Shown piece by piece: positions 1-6,008 of a stretch of DNA of 6,008 nucleotides. The stretch lies in IMG/VR virus record IMGVR_UViG_2778261570_000020, one strand, 5' to 3'. The notes beneath the pieces were generated by a model, which worked only from the letters and a program-made list of their open reading frames with translations, was not told the origin of the DNA and ran no database searches. The position numbers were made by a program, and so were the translations under genes. Numbering within the stretch: the stretch's first letter is position 1; each line of letters begins with the position of its first letter. Source of the DNA: a virus (lineage: Duplodnaviria; Heunggongvirae; Uroviricota; Caudoviricetes).

Positions 1-1
1 C

Positions 2-127
2 TGGCCTCTGTACGAGAAAATCGCGCAGGCATTTAAGCAGGCTGCCGCAGAGCTGAATACCCCCATCGAATGGGGCGGTGAGTGGCGGTCGTTAAAGGAC
101 GGGCCTCACTTTCAGCTGAAACGATAA
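2..127 (+). CDS. 3' end of a CDS truncated by the window start; possible peptidase M15-type phage endolysin (L-alanyl-D-glutamate peptidase-like)
   Basis: Open frame from position 2 to TAA at 125-127, translating ...WPLYEKIAQAFKQAAAELNTPIEWGGEWRSLKDGPHFQLKR. The C-terminal W-x-D-G-x-H-[FV]-[QE]-L pattern resembles the C-terminus of M15-family phage endolysins (e.g. the T5 endolysin ends ...YDGGHVELV). Position upstream of small membrane ORFs and a cos/terminase block fits a lysis gene. Only 41 residues are visible. Confidence 0.4.
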   Translation, partial: WPLYEKIAQAFKQAAAELNTPIEWGGEWRSLKDGPHFQLKR

Positions 128-134
128 ATAAGGC

Positions 135-172
135 AAAGCCCCGGTTGTTGGAGCAATCGGGGCTTTGTGTTT
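135..172 (+). terminator. Hairpin/terminator-like structure downstream of the first CDS
   Basis: AAAGCCCCG (135-143) is the exact reverse complement of CGGGGCTTT (158-166); the stem can extend inward to about 13 bp with one G-U, followed by GTGTTTA. The T-tract is interrupted, so terminator efficiency is uncertain. Confidence 0.45.
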
Positions 173-208
173 ATGGATTCATTTTGTGAATGCGCATGGG
201 GATCATTC

Positions 209-406
209 ATGCCAGTAAAGCCTAACACGACGAAAGATAAATTTGGAGATGATCTGATGATAAAAGCAGAAACCACCCCGCAGGGGGCTGATGATGCCGC
301 AAAAATCATCGCGGTATGCCGGGGCATCAGACACATACTAACGCCAGTTGCATGGATTATTTGTACCGCACTGGTTGCATACACAACAATTTATTTAAAC
401 AGATGA
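209..406 (+). CDS. Hypothetical small protein (65 aa) with a C-terminal hydrophobic segment
   Basis: ATG at 209 preceded by GGGGA; translation MPVKPNTTKDKFGDD...LTPVAWIICTALVAYTTIYLNR ends in a likely transmembrane helix. Its stop overlaps the next start in an ATGA unit (ATG 403-405 / TGA 404-406), suggesting translational coupling. No recognisable family. Confidence 0.3.
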   Translation: MPVKPNTTKDKFGDDLMIKAETTPQGADDAAKIIAVCRGIRHILTPVAWIICTALVAYTTIYLNR

Positions 407-519
407 GTGCTGATTTTATTCGGGCGGTGGCTTTTGCCATTAAGTGGGTGGCGGTTGGCATTGCCGTGTCTCCGATACTGTATGGGCTGGCAAAATTGAT
501 TGTTGCTCTGAAATCGTGA
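403..519 (+). CDS. Hypothetical 38-aa hydrophobic single-pass membrane peptide
   Basis: MSADFIRAVAFAIKWVAVGIAVSPILYGLAKLIVALKS is almost entirely one predicted TM helix. Start overlaps the upstream stop (ATGA) and its own stop TGA 517-519 overlaps a GTG at 516-518 in the next frame. No strong RBS, so confidence is low. Confidence 0.25.
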   Translation: MSADFIRAVAFAIKWVAVGIAVSPILYGLAKLIVALKS

Positions 520-527
520 GTGGTGAT

Positions 528-710
528 ATGACGCGAAAACACTGGACACACAGAATGCCGCGAACGGCGGCGAAATGGGCACTGGTAGCGATACTGGTGC
601 CTTTTTTCCTGGTGGGATGCGTCAGTCTGGATAAGGCGCGCCAGCTTTTCGATACGGCTTCTCAGGTCTGCGAAATTGTCGACGGTGTTCGACAGTGTCT
701 GCAGAGCTGA
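528..710 (+). CDS. Putative small lipoprotein (about 60 aa precursor; alternative GTG start at 516)
   Basis: Translation MTRKHWTHRMPRTAAKWALVAILVPFFLVGCVSLDKARQLFDTASQVCEIVDGVRQCLQS: basic n-region, hydrophobic h-region and an L-V-G-C lipobox, leaving a roughly 30-residue mature peptide with three Cys. Third member of the coupled trio downstream of the endolysin-like gene. Confidence 0.4.
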   Translation: MTRKHWTHRMPRTAAKWALVAILVPFFLVGCVSLDKARQLFDTASQVCEIVDGVRQCLQS

Positions 711-722
711 ACGCCCGTAAGA

Positions 723-780
723 GCAGAATATTTCGCTGAAAAATGAAGGGTGCGCCAGCGTCCGGAAAGCATGAAATTCT
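723..780. repeat. Copy 1 of a ~58-bp imperfect direct repeat (perfect 20-bp core CGTCCGGAAAGCATGAAATT at 759-778)
   Basis: The 20-mer at 759-778 recurs exactly at 5876-5895. Flanking sequence is also similar: GCTGAAAAATGA (735-746) versus GCTAAAAAATGA (5852-5863), and GCCAG before the core with a 1-nt indel. Confidence 0.7.
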
Positions 781-883
781 GCTGTGTGTGTCAATTTGTC
801 TTATACATTCTGAATTTTGCCTAATCAGGATGAACTTTGAACAACAGCCCGGGCGGCAAGGGGCATTTTTATCCGGAGGGGAT

Positions 884-1108
884 ATGAAGAGATTACTGGT
901 AACCGTAAAGCCCTTTAACGGAACGATTCCATTCAGGGTTTTGCAGCGTGGACGTGTTCTGGTTAAGGATATCTTCAGTGGTAAATGCACGGAGTGTTAT
1001 TCCCGGACATATGAAGTGGATGCCACGGATGAAGAAATTTCTGTTGAATGTGATCTGAACGCAAATATGGTGGGGATTGTAACGGCCACGTTGTTGCCTG
1101 TTTCATGA
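884..1108 (+). CDS. Hypothetical protein (74 aa)
   Basis: ATG at 884 preceded by the Shine-Dalgarno-like GGAGGGG with correct spacing; the 12-mer GGAGGGGATATG is identical to the initiation region of the small terminase gene at 2026-2039. Translation MKRLLVTVKPFNGTIPFRVLQRGRVLVKDIFSGKCTECYSRTYEVDATDEEISVECDLNANMVGIVTATLLPVS. The ORF track extends this frame upstream to 743, but that N-terminal extension lacks an RBS and has odd composition. Confidence 0.5.
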   Translation: MKRLLVTVKPFNGTIPFRVLQRGRVLVKDIFSGKCTECYSRTYEVDATDEEISVECDLNANMVGIVTATLLPVS

Positions 1109-1148
1109 ATGACATAGAATGTCTCTGGGTACCCAAAAGGAGAACACT

Positions 1149-1364
1149 ATGTTTGTAGAAAATAACCTGAAGGCTGATCCTGATAATCAGGGATGGGTTC
1201 TTGGTTGGGCTGTAGTACGTGACAAACCCTGGCATCTGGTCGGCATTTATGCAACGGAGGATGGCGCAAAGTCTAAACGCTCTGAATTGAATGGGGAGTA
1301 TGAAGTTCATTATGGTTCCCATCGTTTAGGTAGTGATGATTTTATGTCTGTCGGACTTAGCTAA
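1149..1364 (+). CDS. Hypothetical protein (71 aa)
   Basis: ATG at 1149 preceded by AAGGAG with good spacing; translation MFVENNLKADPDNQGWVLGWAVVRDKPWHLVGIYATEDGAKSKRSELNGEYEVHYGSHRLGSDDFMSVGLS. Followed by a strong intrinsic terminator. Confidence 0.55.
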   Translation: MFVENNLKADPDNQGWVLGWAVVRDKPWHLVGIYATEDGAKSKRSELNGEYEVHYGSHRLGSDDFMSVGLS

Positions 1365-1386
1365 CTGGCTGTGATGCCTGTTTGTA

Positions 1387-1410
1387 GCCCCGCAAATGCG
1401 GGGCTTTTTT
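1387..1410 (+). terminator. Rho-independent terminator
   Basis: GCCCCGC (1387-1393), loop AAAT, GCGGGGC (1398-1404), then TTTTTT (1405-1410): a perfect 7-bp GC-rich stem plus a T-tract. Confidence 0.7.
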
Positions 1411-1420
1411 ATATCTGGAG

Positions 1421-1723
1421 ATGATGATGGAAAAAACAGAAAACAAACCGGTTGCAATTGGTGCTGTGGCTGTTCCGTTTAAGTTTGAACTGTCACAACT
1501 GGTGGAGATGCGCATCAGTGATGAATGGGGTGAGGTTAAAGCCCGCGCGCAGTATGCGTATGGCGAAAACCAGTACCTGATCCACTACAAAGCAGCTGAT
1601 GGTCGCGCCACGACGGAGTGGTTTGGTGAGTCAATGCTGGAAGCAACAGAAGATGATCGTCATCCTGGTTGTCCGGTATTTGCCTGCATGAAATTACCGG
1701 AAGGCGCAGTCGTTACTGAGTAA
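1421..1723 (+). CDS. Hypothetical protein (about 98-100 aa; start at one of the tandem ATGs 1421/1424/1427)
   Basis: GGAG at 1417-1420 followed by three consecutive ATG codons; translation MMMEKTENKPVAIGAVAVPFKFELSQLVEMRISDEWGEVKARAQYAYGENQYLIHYKAADGRATTEWFGESMLEATEDDRHPGCPVFACMKLPEGAVVTE, stop TAA 1721-1723. Acidic and soluble-looking; no recognisable family. Confidence 0.55.
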   Translation: MMMEKTENKPVAIGAVAVPFKFELSQLVEMRISDEWGEVKARAQYAYGENQYLIHYKAADGRATTEWFGESMLEATEDDRHPGCPVFACMKLPEGAVVTE

Positions 1724-2036
1724 CAGGCATTACAGCAGCCCTTCAGTGTGAGGGGCTGCGATAATGCAGGTGTTAGAGTGTGTGCAAATGATAATTGCTC
1801 CCATTTTCACGGGTCCTCCCGGTGGGGTACCCTTGCCACGGGGCGGGAGCGGCGCGGAAAAAGGCTAGTTTTTGCATTTTCATTCATCATCATCATCTTT
1901 TCAATGCATTGAATTTAAACGAATTTTATTTTTAGTATGTTAATTTTGCGTGTTTTTTGGTCAACATATAACGCACTTTATAACGCTTTTTGAAAAGGTG
2001 TTCGCAAGATGCATGTTTAAAACGTCAGGAGGGGAT
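1724..2036. other. Putative cos / packaging-initiation region upstream of the small terminase gene
   Basis: A 313-bp non-coding interval immediately 5' of a Nu1-like terS. It contains a G-rich tract CGGGGCGGGAGCGGCGCGG (1839-1857) that resembles but is not identical to the lambda cohesive end GGGCGGCGACCT, then an AT-rich stretch with CAT repeats (1881-1896) and a perfect 14-bp palindrome TTCAATGCATTGAA (1900-1913). The roughly 190-bp spacing from the G-rich tract to the terS ATG matches the lambda cosN-to-Nu1 layout. Confidence 0.35.
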
Positions 2037-2528
2037 ATGGATCGTGAGTTGAAAAATCTGATGCTGAACATTAACCAACTGGCGGCAATAGCAGGTATAT
2101 GTCGTCAGACTGCGGCGGCAAGACTGCAAAACATCCAGCCCGCCGGAGGACATGACAAGTTAAAGCTCTACCGGGTGGCAGATATTGTGTCGGCATTTCT
2201 GGCATTACCACCGCCGGTTGCAGAAGGCGAAATGGACGCGCATGAGCGCAAAGCCTGGTATCAGTCTGAACGTGAGCGTCTTAAGTTCGAACAGGAAACG
2301 GCACAACTCATTCCGGCCAGTGATGTCAGACGGGAGTTTGCCATCTGGGCAAAAGCGGTCGTGCAGGTGCTGGAGACATTACCGGATATTCTTGAACGTG
2401 ACTGCGGTCTGCAGCCTGCCGCTGTGAGCCGTGTTCAGTCCATTATTGATGATCTGCGCGATCAGATAGCCCTGCGGGTGACTGAAGCAGGTGCGGATGA
2501 TGAGGAGGAATTACAGCAGGAGGAGTAA
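2037..2528 (+). CDS. Terminase small subunit, Nu1-like (164 aa)
   Basis: ATG at 2037 with a strong AGGAGGGG RBS. The N-terminus MDRELKNLMLNINQLAAIAGICRQTAAARL...KLYRVADIVSAF parallels the lambda Nu1 helix-turn-helix region (KKQLADIFGASIRTIQNW...VLYDSAAVIKWY), with an acidic C-terminus. Stop TAA 2526-2528 overlaps the ATG of the large-subunit gene (TAATG). The longer track ORF from 1950 would run through the cos-like region and is not preferred. Confidence 0.75.
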   Translation: MDRELKNLMLNINQLAAIAGICRQTAAARLQNIQPAGGHDKLKLYRVADIVSAFLALPPPVAEGEMDAHERKAWYQSERERLKFEQETAQLIPASDVRREFAIWAKAVVQVLETLPDILERDCGLQPAAVSRVQSIIDDLRDQIALRVTEAGADDEEELQQEE

Positions 2529-3523
2529 TGCTGAATCAGGAAACCGCAAAGGCAGCACGAACCGATTCAGGTTATATCCTTCGCGCACCGAGACGAATGC
2601 GGGTTGCTGATGCCGTTGCTCAGTATATGCGGGTGCCTATGGGGGCAGGGAACTCAGTCCCGTGGGATCCGCTGGTGGCACCGTATGTTATTGAGCCTAT
2701 GAACTGCCTGGCCTCGCGTGAATACGACGCAGTGATATTTGTTGGCCCGGCACGAACCGGCAAGACTATCGGCCTGATTGACGGCTGGGTGATTTACAAC
2801 GTGATTTGCGATCCTGCTGATATGCTGATCATTCAGATGACGGAGGAAAAAGCCCGCGAACACTCCAAAAAACGACTCGCCAGAACGTTTCGCGTCAGCC
2901 CGGAAGTGGTCAGTCGCCTGAGTCCGAACAAAAATGACAACAACGTTTATGACAGAACATTCCTTGCCGGCAATTACCTGAAAATCGGCTGGCCGTCAGT
3001 CAATATCATGTCCTCATCAGATTATAAATGTGTGGCGCTGACGGATTATGACCGTTTTCCGGAAGATATTGATGGTGAGGGGGATGCCTTCTCTCTTGCT
3101 TCAAAACGAACCACCACATTTATGTCCAGCGGTATGACGCTGGTGGAAAGTTCACCCGGCAGGGATGTGAAAGATGTGAAATGGCGACGGACTTCACCGC
3201 ATGAGGCTCCGCCAACCACGGGGATCCTGTCACTCTATAACCGTGGCGATCGTCGTCGCTGGTACTGGCCCTGCCCACACTGTGGTGAGTATTTTCAGCC
3301 CTGTGGCGATGTGGTTGCTGGTTTTCGTGATATTGCCGATCCCGTGCTGGCAAGTGAGGCAGCTTATATTCAGTGCCCTTCCTGTTCCGGGCGAATTATG
3401 CCTGACCAGAAACGCGAGCTGAACGGACGTGGGGTCTGGTTGCGGGATGGTGAATCCATCAATGCAGACGGCAGTCGTTATGGTGAGCCCCGGCGCTCAC
3501 GTATTGCGTCATTCTGGATGTAG
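2528..3523 (+). CDS. Terminase large subunit, GpA-like, N-terminal half only (331 aa; C-terminally truncated, likely remnant/pseudogene)
   Basis: Walker A-type motif VGPARTGKT and cysteine motifs WPCPHCGEYFQPCGD and CPSCSG that parallel lambda gpA (ACPHCGEEQYLKFGD, then GIWTRDG versus GVWLRDG here). Lambda gpA is about 640 aa; this frame stops at ...RIASFWM where gpA continues (...VTFHIWTAYSPF...), and no continuation is visible in any frame downstream. Confidence 0.8.
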   Translation: MLNQETAKAARTDSGYILRAPRRMRVADAVAQYMRVPMGAGNSVPWDPLVAPYVIEPMNCLASREYDAVIFVGPARTGKTIGLIDGWVIYNVICDPADMLIIQMTEEKAREHSKKRLARTFRVSPEVVSRLSPNKNDNNVYDRTFLAGNYLKIGWPSVNIMSSSDYKCVALTDYDRFPEDIDGEGDAFSLASKRTTTFMSSGMTLVESSPGRDVKDVKWRRTSPHEAPPTTGILSLYNRGDRRRWYWPCPHCGEYFQPCGDVVAGFRDIADPVLASEAAYIQCPSCSGRIMPDQKRELNGRGVWLRDGESINADGSRYGEPRRSRIASFWM

Positions 3524-3609
3524 GGTACATTTCTTACCTGTTTTTATGTTCTGGTGTCGTTTTGTAGTCTTTTCAATGAGTTGTGATTTTTTGTGTTTCC
3601 TCTCTTTAC

Positions 3610-3639
3610 TTGATAATGAGTTAGTTTATCGCTTGTTAT
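3610..3639 (+). promoter_or_regulatory. Possible sigma70-like promoter and direct repeats upstream of the integrase gene
   Basis: TTGATA (3610-3615), 18 bp, TGTTAT (3634-3639) in an AT-rich spacer; TTATCG is directly repeated at 3626-3631 and 3636-3641. Purely motif-based. Confidence 0.2.
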
Positions 3640-3684
3640 CGACTTGAAAGGACTACATGACGGACTAAAAAATGAGGGCGATAG

Positions 3685-4923
3685 ATGCCGGTAAAGCCAT
3701 TAACCGTGACTGAAGTTAAGGGGATGAAACCACGTGAAAAGGACTATGCCGTTTATGATGGGTTCGGTTTATTGCTGAATGTGAGTAAAGCTGGTGGGAA
3801 AGTGTGGCGTTTCCGTTATAGCCATCCGATAACGAAGAAACGGCAGACATACACGATAGGGCGTTTTCCTGAATTCTCACTCGCGGAAGCACGGGAAATA
3901 CGTGATGAACTTCGGCGAATGATTGCACGTGGAGTTGATCCAGTGACAGAGAAGAAAAATCGTAAAATTGAGATGTCACTAAAAAATCTACAAACATTTG
4001 AAGCTGTTGCTAATGCATGGATCGCTTTTAAAAAGGGATCGGAATTGCGGAAACCTACGCTGTATAATATCGAATATGAAGTATACAAATATCTTGTTCC
4101 TTTCTTTGGTAAGTACAGCATAGAGAAAATTACAGCGCCAGTAGCTATTAATGCTCTGGATGCCGTATCCGATAAGAATGCGTTGCAAAAAAAATTAATA
4201 TCAAGATTAAATGAAATTATGAATTACGCTGTAAATTGTGGAGCATTGAAAACGAATCCATTACTTAAGATAAAAACTGCATTCACAGGAAAGAAAAATA
4301 AATCATTAGCTGCACTACCTGTTGAAAGATTGCCTGAATTTCTGAGTTGGTGGGATAGTGTGCCTCATAAGTATCAAATAGCTCACAATGCACTTTTATT
4401 CCAGATATTGACAATGGTCAGGCCAGGTGAGGCGATTAAAGCAGAGTGGTCCGAGATTGATTTTGATTCTGGCTTGTGGATTATCCCTGCGCATAAAATG
4501 AAATGCCATCGTGAACATGTTGTGCCTCTCTCATCACAGGCTATTAGAATCCTAAGAACAATGCAGAAAATAAAAAGAGGGCGTTATATATTTTTTTCCT
4601 CCAGAACAAAAGATGCTCCTATGGGAAAGAATACTATCAATACCCCAATTGCTGCCAGCAAGTTCAAAGGGATTGTAACGTTACACGGTTTTCGTTCGAT
4701 GTGGAGTACGCTTTTAAATGAGGAGGGTTTTAACCCTGATGTTATTGAGGCTGCATTAGCACATAAAAGTGGTGATAAAATAAGAGATATTTATAATAGA
4801 ACTACTTATTTAGAACAACGCAAAATTATGATGCAATGGGTAGGAGATTTTTTTGATGAGGCGAGAAAAGGGGTAATTAATAGATCCGGTGGTAAGAAAG
4901 GTTTGAGAATAGTAAATGGTTGA
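3685..4923 (+). CDS. int: Tyrosine site-specific integrase, P4-type (412 aa)
   Basis: N-terminal arm-binding-type domain (MPVKPLTVTEVKGMKPREKDYAVYDGFGLLLNVSKAGGKVWRFRYSHP..., characteristic of P4-like integrases). Catalytic motifs are present: RPGE box (MVRPGEAIKAEW), HGFRSMWST (H-x-x-R) and the C-terminal tyrosine region AHKSGDKIRDIYNRTTY. RBS GAGGG upstream of ATG 3685. Gene is AT-rich relative to the terminase block. Confidence 0.9.
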   Translation: MPVKPLTVTEVKGMKPREKDYAVYDGFGLLLNVSKAGGKVWRFRYSHPITKKRQTYTIGRFPEFSLAEAREIRDELRRMIARGVDPVTEKKNRKIEMSLKNLQTFEAVANAWIAFKKGSELRKPTLYNIEYEVYKYLVPFFGKYSIEKITAPVAINALDAVSDKNALQKKLISRLNEIMNYAVNCGALKTNPLLKIKTAFTGKKNKSLAALPVERLPEFLSWWDSVPHKYQIAHNALLFQILTMVRPGEAIKAEWSEIDFDSGLWIIPAHKMKCHREHVVPLSSQAIRILRTMQKIKRGRYIFFSSRTKDAPMGKNTINTPIAASKFKGIVTLHGFRSMWSTLLNEEGFNPDVIEAALAHKSGDKIRDIYNRTTYLEQRKIMMQWVGDFFDEARKGVINRSGGKKGLRIVNG

Positions 4924-4935
4924 GGAGTTCAGCAA

Positions 4936-5139
4936 ATGAATACCAATGAAGATATTTTATTTACTAAAGACGTAATGAAAATTTTGCGCTATGGGGCAAT
5001 GAGCGCATTCATCAATTTCTGGAAAGATGAAAATAATGGTTTTCCTCAACCGTTCAGAATTGGGCGGCGGCATACCTGGCACCGTAGAGATGTAGAGGCA
5101 TGGTTAGATAAACAACGAGAACAGGCCAATCCCCACTAA
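4936..5139 (+). CDS. alpA: AlpA-family (excisionase-like) DNA-binding regulator (67 aa)
   Basis: Small protein immediately 3' of the integrase (13-bp gap, RBS GAGGAG). The pattern ...KDVMKILRYGAMSAFINFWKDENNGFPQPFRIGRRHTWHRRDVEAWLDKQ matches the AlpA / prophage CP4-57 regulatory protein architecture (HTH, then a conserved FP-x-P-hydrophobic-x-G motif, then W-x3-[DE]-x2-[EA]-W). Confidence 0.7.
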   Translation: MNTNEDILFTKDVMKILRYGAMSAFINFWKDENNGFPQPFRIGRRHTWHRRDVEAWLDKQREQANPH

Positions 5140-5153
5140 TAATATCTTTCATA

Positions 5154-5178
5154 CCCCGCACGCAATGCGGGGTTTTTT
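5154..5178 (+). terminator. Rho-independent terminator
   Basis: CCCCGCA (5154-5160), loop CGCAA, TGCGGGG (5166-5172), then TTTTTT (5173-5178). Confidence 0.75.
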
Positions 5179-5197
5179 GTATGTGAGGTAAAAAACG

Positions 5198-5779
5198 ATG
5201 AATAAAAATATTGCCGTGACGGGCAAGGGGTACGCTCGTTCAGTAAAAAAATTCTGCGATATTCGTGATCTTGTCGTTCTGCGCTTTGATGGCGTGGATG
5301 TTCGTGTGGTGTATCTGAACGGCGATCCGTGGTTTGTTGCAAAGGATGTTTGTGAAGCTCTGGAAATAAGCAACTCACGCGATGCTCTAAAAGCTCTGGA
5401 TGTGGATGAGAAGAATACCGTCGCTTTAAGCTACGGTATTCGCGGAAATCCAAATCATAGCGTCGTTTCTGAATCTGGTTTTTACAAGCTGATCGCCAGA
5501 AGTCGCAAAGCTGTTACTCCTGGCACGTTCGCCCATCGTTTCAGTAATTGGGTATTCAGAAATGTGATACCGGGTATCAGAAAAACGGGGGCTTATGGTA
5601 TCCCGTGGGGCGCATTGCAGGATTTTTCCCGCCGCAAAGAGCAATACCGGATAAGTGCCAGCGAGAAGGGGAGGGCGCTACAGGCATGTAAGCGCAAAAA
5701 GCGTGAACTGGAGGAAGAAGAAAAAAGGCTGATACGTGAATATCAGCCTGAGTTTTACTTTGGTGAGCGTATTCAGTAA
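5198..5779 (+). CDS. Bro-N domain protein (phage antirepressor-like; 193 aa)
   Basis: RBS TGAGGT 8 nt upstream of ATG 5198. Conserved Bro-N signature blocks: VVLRFDGVDVRVVYLNGDPWFVAKDVCEAL...SRDALKALDVDEK, then SESGFYKLIARSRKA...FAHRFSNWVFRNVIPGIRKTGAYG. C-terminal 50 residues are highly charged (KRKKRELEEEEKRLIRE). Confidence 0.8.
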   Translation: MNKNIAVTGKGYARSVKKFCDIRDLVVLRFDGVDVRVVYLNGDPWFVAKDVCEALEISNSRDALKALDVDEKNTVALSYGIRGNPNHSVVSESGFYKLIARSRKAVTPGTFAHRFSNWVFRNVIPGIRKTGAYGIPWGALQDFSRRKEQYRISASEKGRALQACKRKKRELEEEEKRLIREYQPEFYFGERIQ

Positions 5780-5824
5780 CCGCGTACGGTGCTGATTATA
5801 CGGTACATCGTGTTAACCGGGAAG

Positions 5825-5939
5825 TTACCCACCAGCAAGGCAAAATCTTCTGCTAAAAAATGACATATGGCCAGTCGTCCGGAAAGCATGAAATTTTACA
5901 AAAATGGAAAATGAAGATTTTTATTGTGCTGGTGGGTAA
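5825..5939. repeat. Perfect 13-bp inverted repeat (TTACCCACCAGCA at 5825-5837 / TGCTGGTGGGTAA at 5927-5939) enclosing an 89-bp spacer
   Basis: Exact reverse-complement arms read directly from the sequence; the spacer contains the second copy of the direct repeat. Confidence 0.7.
5840..5897. repeat. Copy 2 of the ~58-bp imperfect direct repeat (perfect 20-bp core at 5876-5895)
   Basis: See copy 1 at 723-780; the core CGTCCGGAAAGCATGAAATT is identical in both. Confidence 0.7.
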
Positions 5940-5970
5940 AAACAAAAAGCGCCCCGTTGCCGGAGCGCCC
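5938..5970 (-). terminator. Possible intrinsic terminator for a minus-strand transcript entering from beyond the right edge
   Basis: On the minus strand GGGCGCUCCGG-CAAC-GGGGCGC forms an imperfect GC-rich hairpin (about 8 bp including one G-U) followed by UUUUUGUUUUU (plus-strand AAAAACAAAAA at 5938-5948). Confidence 0.35.
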
Positions 5971-6008
5971 TTGCGAACAATTAACCTACTGCGCAAAAAA
6001 TGAATCTG

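Follow-up and report, generated by a model that had tools for sequence, protein, structure and literature searches.

We analyzed a 6,008-bp stretch of tailed-phage DNA (IMG/VR record IMGVR_UViG_2778261570_000020), hereafter the window, which is the entire draft contig NLMT01000131.1 of assembly GCA_002228995.1. At issue is a module consisting of an integrase gene (int), a gene for a small helix-turn-helix (HTH) protein and a Bro-N gene, which stands directly to the right of the terminase genes of a lambdoid prophage (the helper). The credible genes of the window lie without exception on the plus strand. The helper small terminase gene terS (2037..2528) encodes a DUF1441 family protein (Pfam DUF1441, 1e-38; PHROG 141 terminase small subunit, 2e-72) and is followed by the 5' fragment of a gpA-family large terminase gene, terL (2528..3523), encoding 331 amino acids (aa) in which Pfam detected GpA_ATPase (1.7e-72, residues 41 to 304) and no nuclease domain. 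Then come int (3685..4923), encoding a 412-aa tyrosine integrase (Int) with Arm-DNA-bind_3 (3.9e-23), Phage_int_M and Phage_integrase (7.4e-21) domains; the gene for the 67-aa HTH protein (4936..5139; PHROG 66), in the position of alpA or xis; and the gene for a 193-aa Bro-N/anti-repressor-like protein (5198..5779; Pfam Bro-N, 1.6e-18; PHROG 2593 anti-repressor, 5.8e-82). A preliminary description of the window had proposed that these last three genes are tightly linked on one strand, and we found all of them to be real, intact and co-oriented.

The same description had called the module AT rich and of different origin from the packaging genes. Calculated per gene, the composition of the window was not uniform. 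The GC content of int is 0.387 (0.323 at third codon positions [GC3]), with 29 AAA, 11 AGA and 12 ATA codons, versus 0.534 (GC3, 0.535) for the terL fragment, a difference significant at p = 4e-12 (chi-square). The HTH gene is also AT rich (GC, 0.407; GC3, 0.403), but the label does not extend to Bro-N (GC, 0.471; GC3, 0.456), which differs only weakly from terL (p = 0.017). In a megablast search of 50,697 phage genomes, matches to mEp460, phi458, Ayreon and other phages (92 to 95% identity) stopped at window position 3525/3526, and no phage matched to the right of 3526. The break in composition falls on the same base, 3526, as the end of all phage homology, in agreement with a separate origin of the module.

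Insertion within terL and attachment sites

The intact TerL of phi458 is 700 aa long (2,103 nt), with the ATPase domain at residues 41 to 304 and GpA_nuclease at residues 326 to 644, and terL is uninterrupted in both mEp460 and phi458, the intact relatives of the helper. In the window, TerL ends at codon 331 of about 700, with a TAG at 3521-3523. The gene is cut within codons 329 to 333 (FWMEG), at about position 5 to 6 of the Pfam GpA_nuclease profile, that is, at the boundary between the ATPase and the nuclease domains. In seven relatives (L001 to L007; relatives are loci whose Int is identical to that of the window), phi458 terL aligned with its nt 1 to 999 on the left of the element and with its nt 987 to 2103 on the right, the two halves overlapping by 13 bp, which form a common core. 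The element measures 9,502 to 10,824 bp in these loci, the 3' half of terL resumes in register past it, and in silico excision from L001 restored an uninterrupted 700-aa TerL open reading frame (ORF). The packaging block, which had been regarded as a mere neighbor of the module, is thus actually the site of insertion, terL being split by the satellite. Since the insertion lies within terL, the attachment (att) target is a late gene of the helper itself and not a tRNA gene or chromosomal site, as it is in P4 and in classical phage-inducible chromosomal islands (PICIs).

The core at the left junction of the window, attL, is CTGGATGTAGGGT (3514..3526, plus strand), corresponds to the 13-bp overlap of the terL halves and contains the TAG. 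The preliminary description let the module begin at 3524, which is indeed the first base past the terL stop codon; the recombination junction itself is 3514-3526. The uninterrupted target, attB, reads CTGGATGGAGGGT (codons F-W-M-E-G), and attR of the relatives reads ttcttcCTGGATGGAGGG(G/T). Because there is a single mismatch between the att sequences, the crossover segment is probably the 7-bp CTGGATG (window 3514-3520). The satellite side therefore supplies, through an attP-derived T at 3521, the in-frame TAG that ends TerL at residue 331, so that the lysogen can make only a 331-aa, ATPase-only TerL. Reconstruction predicts the junctions TTACTTCTTCCTGGATGTAGGGTACATTTC for attP and GCGTCATTCTGGATGGAGGGTCCGGC for the repaired attB. 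In one relative, L006, attL (9830-9842) is CTGGATGGAGGGT without the TAG, and the truncated TerL reads on to 352 aa; a clean stop at the junction is thus not universal. The left arm of the satellite (3527..3684, plus strand; the P' arm of attP) harbors candidate arm-type sites: the 10-mer TTTATCGCTT at 3625-3634 and a second half-site, TTATCG, at 3636-3641. The reconstructed attP contains the 10-mer twice in one orientation, at -98 and +111, and a similar TTTTTTATC(G) pair occurs at -122/+107 in an integrase lineage 59% identical to that of the window. Judging from this arrangement, TTTATCGCTT and the half-site may serve as arm-type sites of the integrase.

Taken together, these data make it very probable that window positions 3514 to 6008 are the left (int-proximal) end of a PICI-type satellite of about 10 kb, which is inserted site specifically, and co-oriented, into the gpA-family terL of a lambdoid prophage and is hence embedded in its helper.

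Gene content, distribution and integrase lineages

The genes to the right of Bro-N were read from the relatives. Their left part consists of int, the HTH gene and Bro-N, followed by variable leftward genes (YlcI/YnfO, SWIM or unknown). Next come an Icd-like gene, small ORFs, DUF4222, a D5/P4-type primase gene, an 81-aa ORF and a gene for a single-stranded DNA-binding protein (SSB), and the late zone is made up of a ClpP-protease/major capsid protein (MCP) fusion, a DUF1441 TerS and a 93-aa ORF, after which the 3' half of terL resumes. Most relatives retain complete primase, SSB, protease-MCP and TerS genes. The protease-capsid fusion of the satellite is 57% identical to that of the helper, and its TerS is 75% identical at the amino acid level. 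By blastn, a late-zone segment of L002 to L007 (about 19.1 to 19.8 kb) displayed 82 to 84% DNA identity to window 1804-2326, a match that starts at about 1804 and takes in helper terS together with about 230 bp upstream. From this similarity we infer that the segment is a captured helper terS with its cos-proximal packaging signal, a capture that would let the satellite redirect packaging.

The Gram-negative PICI core set of SatelliteFinder comprises int, a regulator, pri-rep, a capsid gene and terS (PMC10085698). The window holds the first two, and L002 to L007 hold all five; likewise, the Integration zone and the first Bro gene lie in the window, and all four zones are present in the relatives. 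The gene plan of the relatives is that of a Gram-negative PICI. The int-alpA pair had been taken for the leading edge of a PICI or P4-like satellite, and the primase, SSB, protease-capsid fusion and TerS found behind an identical Int bear this out. In the window and in every relative, terS, terL, int, the HTH gene and Bro-N are co-oriented (on the plus strand of the window), in line with the Q/late operon of the helper.

An intrinsic terminator lies on the minus strand at 5935..5972 (stem 5972-5945, 12 pairs of which 7 are G-C, then TTTTTGTTTTT, with the T-run extending to about 5935). The preliminary description had noted this terminator and suspected a converging gene or module boundary beyond it. 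Both turned out to be real: in the relatives the terminator closes a leftward gene set, made up of a small hypothetical gene and a YlcI/YnfO-family gene, whose place in the window would be past the contig end, and the annotation of L001 shows minus-strand genes about 170 bp farther on. The match to the window ends at 5777 or 5897 in L002 to L007 and runs to about 6001 in L001 and the O157-type copies. The divergence of the relatives just to the right of Bro-N points to a variable hotspot. Anti-phage cargo, which the preliminary description had named as frequent in such elements, was not detected there: PADLOC and Pfam, applied to Bro-N and to the variable minus-strand cargo of the relatives, gave a SWIM finger and sub-threshold matches and no defense system. 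In the helper of L005, the Q antiterminator and the lysis genes are separated by a GmrSD_N/HEPN gene pair (2762-4614), defense cargo of the prophage with no relation to the satellite.

The integrase has the architecture of P4 and CP4-57 IntA (Arm-DNA-bind_3 plus a catalytic domain). Its top NCBIfam match, NF007246 (PRK09692), which we took as the CP4-57 IntA-type model, scored 324.5 bits, below the cutoff of 434. Its homologs were not found to belong to complete lambdoid phages, as no close Int was present among the 50,697 phage genomes, the best being 39.5% identical. As for the HTH protein, the earlier AlpA-like label is in part justified: the protein matched PHROG 66, "excisionase and transcriptional regulator" (9.3e-07), and, by BLASTP, the AlpA of the helper-embedded PICI (HE-PICI) 11capE (E = 4e-05), but it gave no match to Pfam Phage_AlpA (PF05930) at E of ≤10, while the 11capE protein matches that family at 2.8e-15. 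The match to HTH_17 was sub-threshold (17.7 bits; cutoff, 27), and a sequence search of the PDB returned a resemblance to lambda Xis alone, which was not significant (E = 0.78). On the strength of these matches, the HTH protein is probably an excisionase/activator. Between its gene and Bro-N, the terminator scan placed a strong plus-strand intrinsic terminator at 5153..5180 (ACCCCGCACGCAATGCGGGGT, then a T-run; 8 pairs, 6 of them G-C), so that int and the HTH gene would form a unit apart from the Bro zone unless antitermination occurs. A scan for sigma-70 promoters from terL to int gave 3 matches versus 6.0 expected in shuffled sequences and hence no evidence for a promoter of their own.

The int gene was present in 89 of 5,426 complete E. 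coli genomes (about 1.6%), and a 600-bp probe across terL/int was covered to at least 80% in 88 genomes. In about 2,250 of the genomes there is a terL homolog whose match ends exactly at the junction, indicating that most target sites are unoccupied; many genomes have more than one terL homolog, with up to 5 places per genome. Neither a tRNA gene nor a chromosomal one lies at the terL/int junction. The identical 412-aa Int is indexed in 972 assembly blocks, and three divergent terL alleles of E. coli carry the insertion at one and the same codon, namely, ...RRSRIASFWM (window), ...TPRNSRIASFWM (SCU-171) and the O121 allele. The helper backbones vary as well, from Qin-like to a lambdoid prophage with tRNA genes. 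The occurrence of one Int in varied prophage backbones and terL alleles requires repeated independent integration. The one helper sampled at full length, that of L001, has an integrase/excisionase pair at the far end of the prophage. Among Shiga toxin-producing E. coli (STEC), the terL-embedded element was seen in serotypes O157:H7, O121, O145:H28, O111:H8 and O45:H2, with terL recorded there as two pseudogenes.

We sampled integrase homologs down to 50% identity, a small sample that yielded seven lineages, including that of the window, and examined the right-hand flank for the window type, for P0014 and, from annotation alone, for P0042. The seven lineages are 47 to 75% identical to one another and 22 to 33% identical to the Int of 11capE (52 to 90 bits), and all seven are located within prophage late operons, at six or more different sites. 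The closest to the window Int, P0004 (75% identical; Salmonella), occupies the same gpA terL site, in DUF1441 phages. P0014 (59%; E. coli) interrupts a lambda-type gpA gene at the homologous codon, with core ACATCTGGAC and a 5' fragment of 331 aa. A Peptidase_S78 protease/capsid gene is the site of P0009 (63%; Salmonella), and a Major_capside gene that of P0044 (51%; Raoultella). P0042 (50%; E. coli) is flanked by DUF2213 and cement gp24, and P0036 (50%; E. coli) lies in the gene that immediately follows a Terminase_2 terS. In three complete genomes, P0014 is instead in a neck/tail-region gene of a prophage that carries the subtilase (SubAB) toxin genes and has kept its own gpA terL intact, as in E. 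coli SA53-3 (L020, 14528 and about 25409); the neck/tail gene is an alternative or off-target site of the P0014 type. In L027 (about 1000-1100), a 50%-identical member of the clade interrupts the gene just past a Terminase_2 terS, at ...IKEVFILIPKNN*. This sequence is similar to the Walker-A region of terminases, and the site may be one more terL target, in a different terminase family. The nearest non-embedded relatives sampled are IntA-like integrases of Pectobacterium (38 to 43% identical), which occupy chromosomal sites. We therefore lean, if only slightly, toward assigning the integrase of the window to a second clade, which would have evolved independently and would systematically target the packaging and head genes of prophage late operons. 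If this is true, helper embedding would be a convergent satellite strategy that is much more widespread than the single clade described so far.

The left part of the window carries the 3' end of an endolysin gene and several small lysis-region ORFs, all on the plus strand. This lysis-proximal part of the helper is mosaic: phiP27 matches it in three pieces (93% identity over parts of window 1-1775, by megablast against the phage genomes), and the terS-terL part matches phages of the mEp460/phi458 type. Both contig ends probably fall in repeats common to several prophages, and a search for the attR and the cargo of the window copy itself returned, as exact matches elsewhere, shorter contigs only.

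Proposed mechanism and alternative explanations

The precise insertion in terL, the duplicated core, the repairable ORF, the co-orientation with the helper late operon and the presence of satellite genes, including those for TerS and a capsid-protease fusion, were all computed directly. On this basis we propose a mechanism modeled on the HE-PICIs of Tommasini et al. 2023 (PMC10111431) and on general lambdoid biology, in which the genes for the replication and packaging steps are those known from the relatives, the window contig ending after Bro-N. Upon induction of the helper, Q-antiterminated late transcription would run from terS and the 5' fragment of terL into int and the Xis/AlpA-like gene. 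Int and the HTH protein would excise the satellite across the 7-bp CTGGATG overlap, which would restore the 700-aa terL product. The satellite would replicate by means of its own D5/P4-type primase and SSB. The repaired terminase of the helper, redirected by the DUF1441 TerS of the satellite and the captured cos-proximal region, would package it, probably into capsids built with the satellite's own protease-capsid fusion. Packaging of the helper would be held hostage until the satellite departs. Bro-N may act on the regulation of either helper or satellite.

Several observations weigh against this picture of a functional, helper-embedded satellite. The window ends at 6008, after Bro-N, so that the rest of this copy and its attR lie beyond the contig, and the element is known here as sequence alone. 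The HTH protein is not a recognizable AlpA, and the transcriptional logic is inferred, because a plus-strand terminator follows the HTH gene and promoter matches are no commoner than chance. Several helpers look defective (Qin-like remnants, insertion sequence [IS] insertions, pseudogenes), and some satellite copies are decayed: that of SCU-171 (L014, 17000-22300) has an IS66 insertion as well as frameshifts in its primase and SSB genes, and that of JNEC-KY179 (L001, 29282-30288) has a fragmented protease-capsid gene and no TerS. Given such helpers and copies, many copies may be immobile fossils.

The corresponding alternative is that the satellite once entered terL and that the composite is now cryptic and inherited vertically, with no role in mobilization or regulation. 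The Qin-like defective helpers with IS3 insertions and pseudogenes and the decayed copies in L014 and L001 are what one would expect in this case, and the founder HE-PICI study likewise failed to recover virions (PMC10111431). However, the window retains intact copies of int, the HTH gene and Bro-N, most relatives have a complete set of primase, SSB, MCP-protease and TerS genes, and the spread of one identical Int over 972 assembly blocks with varied backbones and terL alleles calls for repeated independent integration; we thus consider the fossil scenario unlikely, though by no means negligible. A different possibility is that the insertion serves as a defense or interference device, in which the 331-aa ATPase-only TerL, with or without Bro-N, would poison the terminase of related superinfecting or co-resident phages, mobilization being secondary. 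This would fit a cut placed exactly between the ATPase and nuclease domains, a core that provides a clean stop codon and the many genomes harboring more than one terL homolog. Yet the clean stop is not conserved, as L006 reads on to 352 aa, and neither Bro-N nor the neighboring cargo matched a defense family, which makes this idea improbable.

Two further explanations dispense with an embedded satellite altogether. The window alone shows just a truncated terL followed by int, and the integrase has a P4/IntA-type architecture, so one might see here an ordinary P4-like or CP4-57-like chromosomal island that by coincidence abuts a prophage truncated by deletion. Against this, the 3' half of terL resumes in register past the element with the core repeated, the junction is present in 88 genomes versus 89 with int, the same codon is used in divergent terL genes and in Salmonella, and the junction is devoid of tRNA or chromosomal genes. 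We rejected chance adjacency, which the junction, core and terL-half evidence effectively refutes. Lambdoid phages also commonly carry integrases and Bro-N/Ant-like genes, and the three genes might accordingly be an integration or moron module owned by the phage itself. But the best Int in the 50,697 phage records is only 39.5% identical, the megablast matches to phages do not extend beyond 3526, an integrase and an excisionase of the helper itself are located at its far end, and terL of mEp460 and phi458 is uninterrupted; on these grounds, the phage-owned module was rejected as well, and we regard it as very improbable.

The helper-embedded satellite that we favor has practical consequences. 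Annotation pipelines record such loci as "partial terminase" pseudogenes beside an orphan integrase. Since a terL split by a satellite is repairable, recognizing the element corrects calls of prophage "defectiveness," not least in STEC, and affects predictions of which prophages can still be mobilized. Moreover, with att sites defined this exactly, the cis-regulatory "hostage" model can be put to a direct test.

Comparison with known systems

The relatives are not capsid-forming PICIs (cfPICIs), since tail, lysis, terL, portal and head-tail adaptor genes are absent; their late zones hold the protease-MCP fusion, TerS and the 93-aa ORF only. With P4 and the CP4-57 IntA islands, the element shares the integrase architecture and the order of int, a small Xis/AlpA-like HTH gene, an Icd-like gene and a D5/P4-type primase gene. 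It differs in that its helper is lambdoid and not P2, its target is not a tRNA gene and its Int falls below the cutoff of the NCBIfam IntA model. No C4/isrK immunity RNA was found by Rfam at the gathering threshold in the window, L001 or L006. Without such an RNA and with a helper that is not P2-like, the element is not P4-like in the strict sense.

An intervening element that confers "regulated gene integrity" is also known from Bacillus subtilis, where skin resides in sigK. Such elements are also discussed in the HE-PICI paper (PMC10111431). As in skin/sigK, an integrative element interrupts a gene that is rebuilt only on excision; here, however, the interrupted gene is that of a helper phage, and the regulation would be of use to the satellite, not to the cell.

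Classical Gram-negative PICIs such as EcCICFT073, listed under phoQ in the att-site files of the HE-PICI paper (PMC10111431), resemble the element in their int-regulator-primase-capsid/TerS layout, their size of about 10 kb, their lambdoid cos-type helper and the redirection of packaging by a TerS homolog. In contrast to the window element, which lies inside terL of its helper, they occupy chromosomal gene sites and interact with the helper only in trans.

The configuration is that of an HE-PICI and is thus of a known kind. HE-PICIs were described by Tommasini, Mageeney and Williams in 2023, at 14 sites plus 1 putative one; their attP contains no replacement sequence, hence "regulated gene integrity," their induction proceeds from composite excision through replication to satellite excision, and the authors predicted that more such elements exist (PMC10111431). 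Like them, the window element disrupts its late target gene (TerL is cut at 331 of 700 aa) and has an attP without replacement sequence, as there is no terL homology to the right of the core. The matches to phages stop at 3526, and in the relatives the terL halves flank the element with a common core. The satellite genes are co-oriented with the interrupted late gene, the zones of the relatives follow the order Integration, Bro, Replication and Late, and copies of helper head and packaging genes have been captured in both. The primase of the relatives is 87% identical to that of 11capE, which excises experimentally (PMC10111431), and the two share their DUF4222, Icd-like, YlcI/YnfO and SSB genes.

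The differences are equally clear. The window Int is 25% identical to that of 11capE (85.5 bits, versus the 400-bit search cutoff of the paper). The insertion lies in a gpA-family terL, where the nuclease domain begins, whereas the terminase sites of the paper are in Terminase_1-type genes; "GpA" and the att k-mers of the window are absent from the supplementary files of the paper, one spreadsheet being covered in part, and the terL(gpA) site is not among the 14. A literature search for an earlier account of a terL(gpA)-embedded satellite turned up nothing beyond the 2023 paper and works that cite it. The doubled TGTATTGC arm motif of HE-PICIs (about -81/+132 of attP) is absent from both strands of the reconstructed attP and is replaced by the TTTATCGC pair at -98/+111, with a similar pair in the sister lineage. 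The HTH protein of the window is not a Pfam AlpA, while that of 11capE is, and the satellite relatives carry their own TerS, while 11capE is without terS. The element is therefore novel with respect to published HE-PICIs in its integrase lineage, target site, arm motifs and own TerS. With it, helper embedding is no longer confined to the single integrase clade of its discovery, and a gpA-family large terminase, of the lambda A type, joins the list of targets; a second clade of the same tropism, in STEC and Salmonella, would be a useful and testable extension of the published concept.

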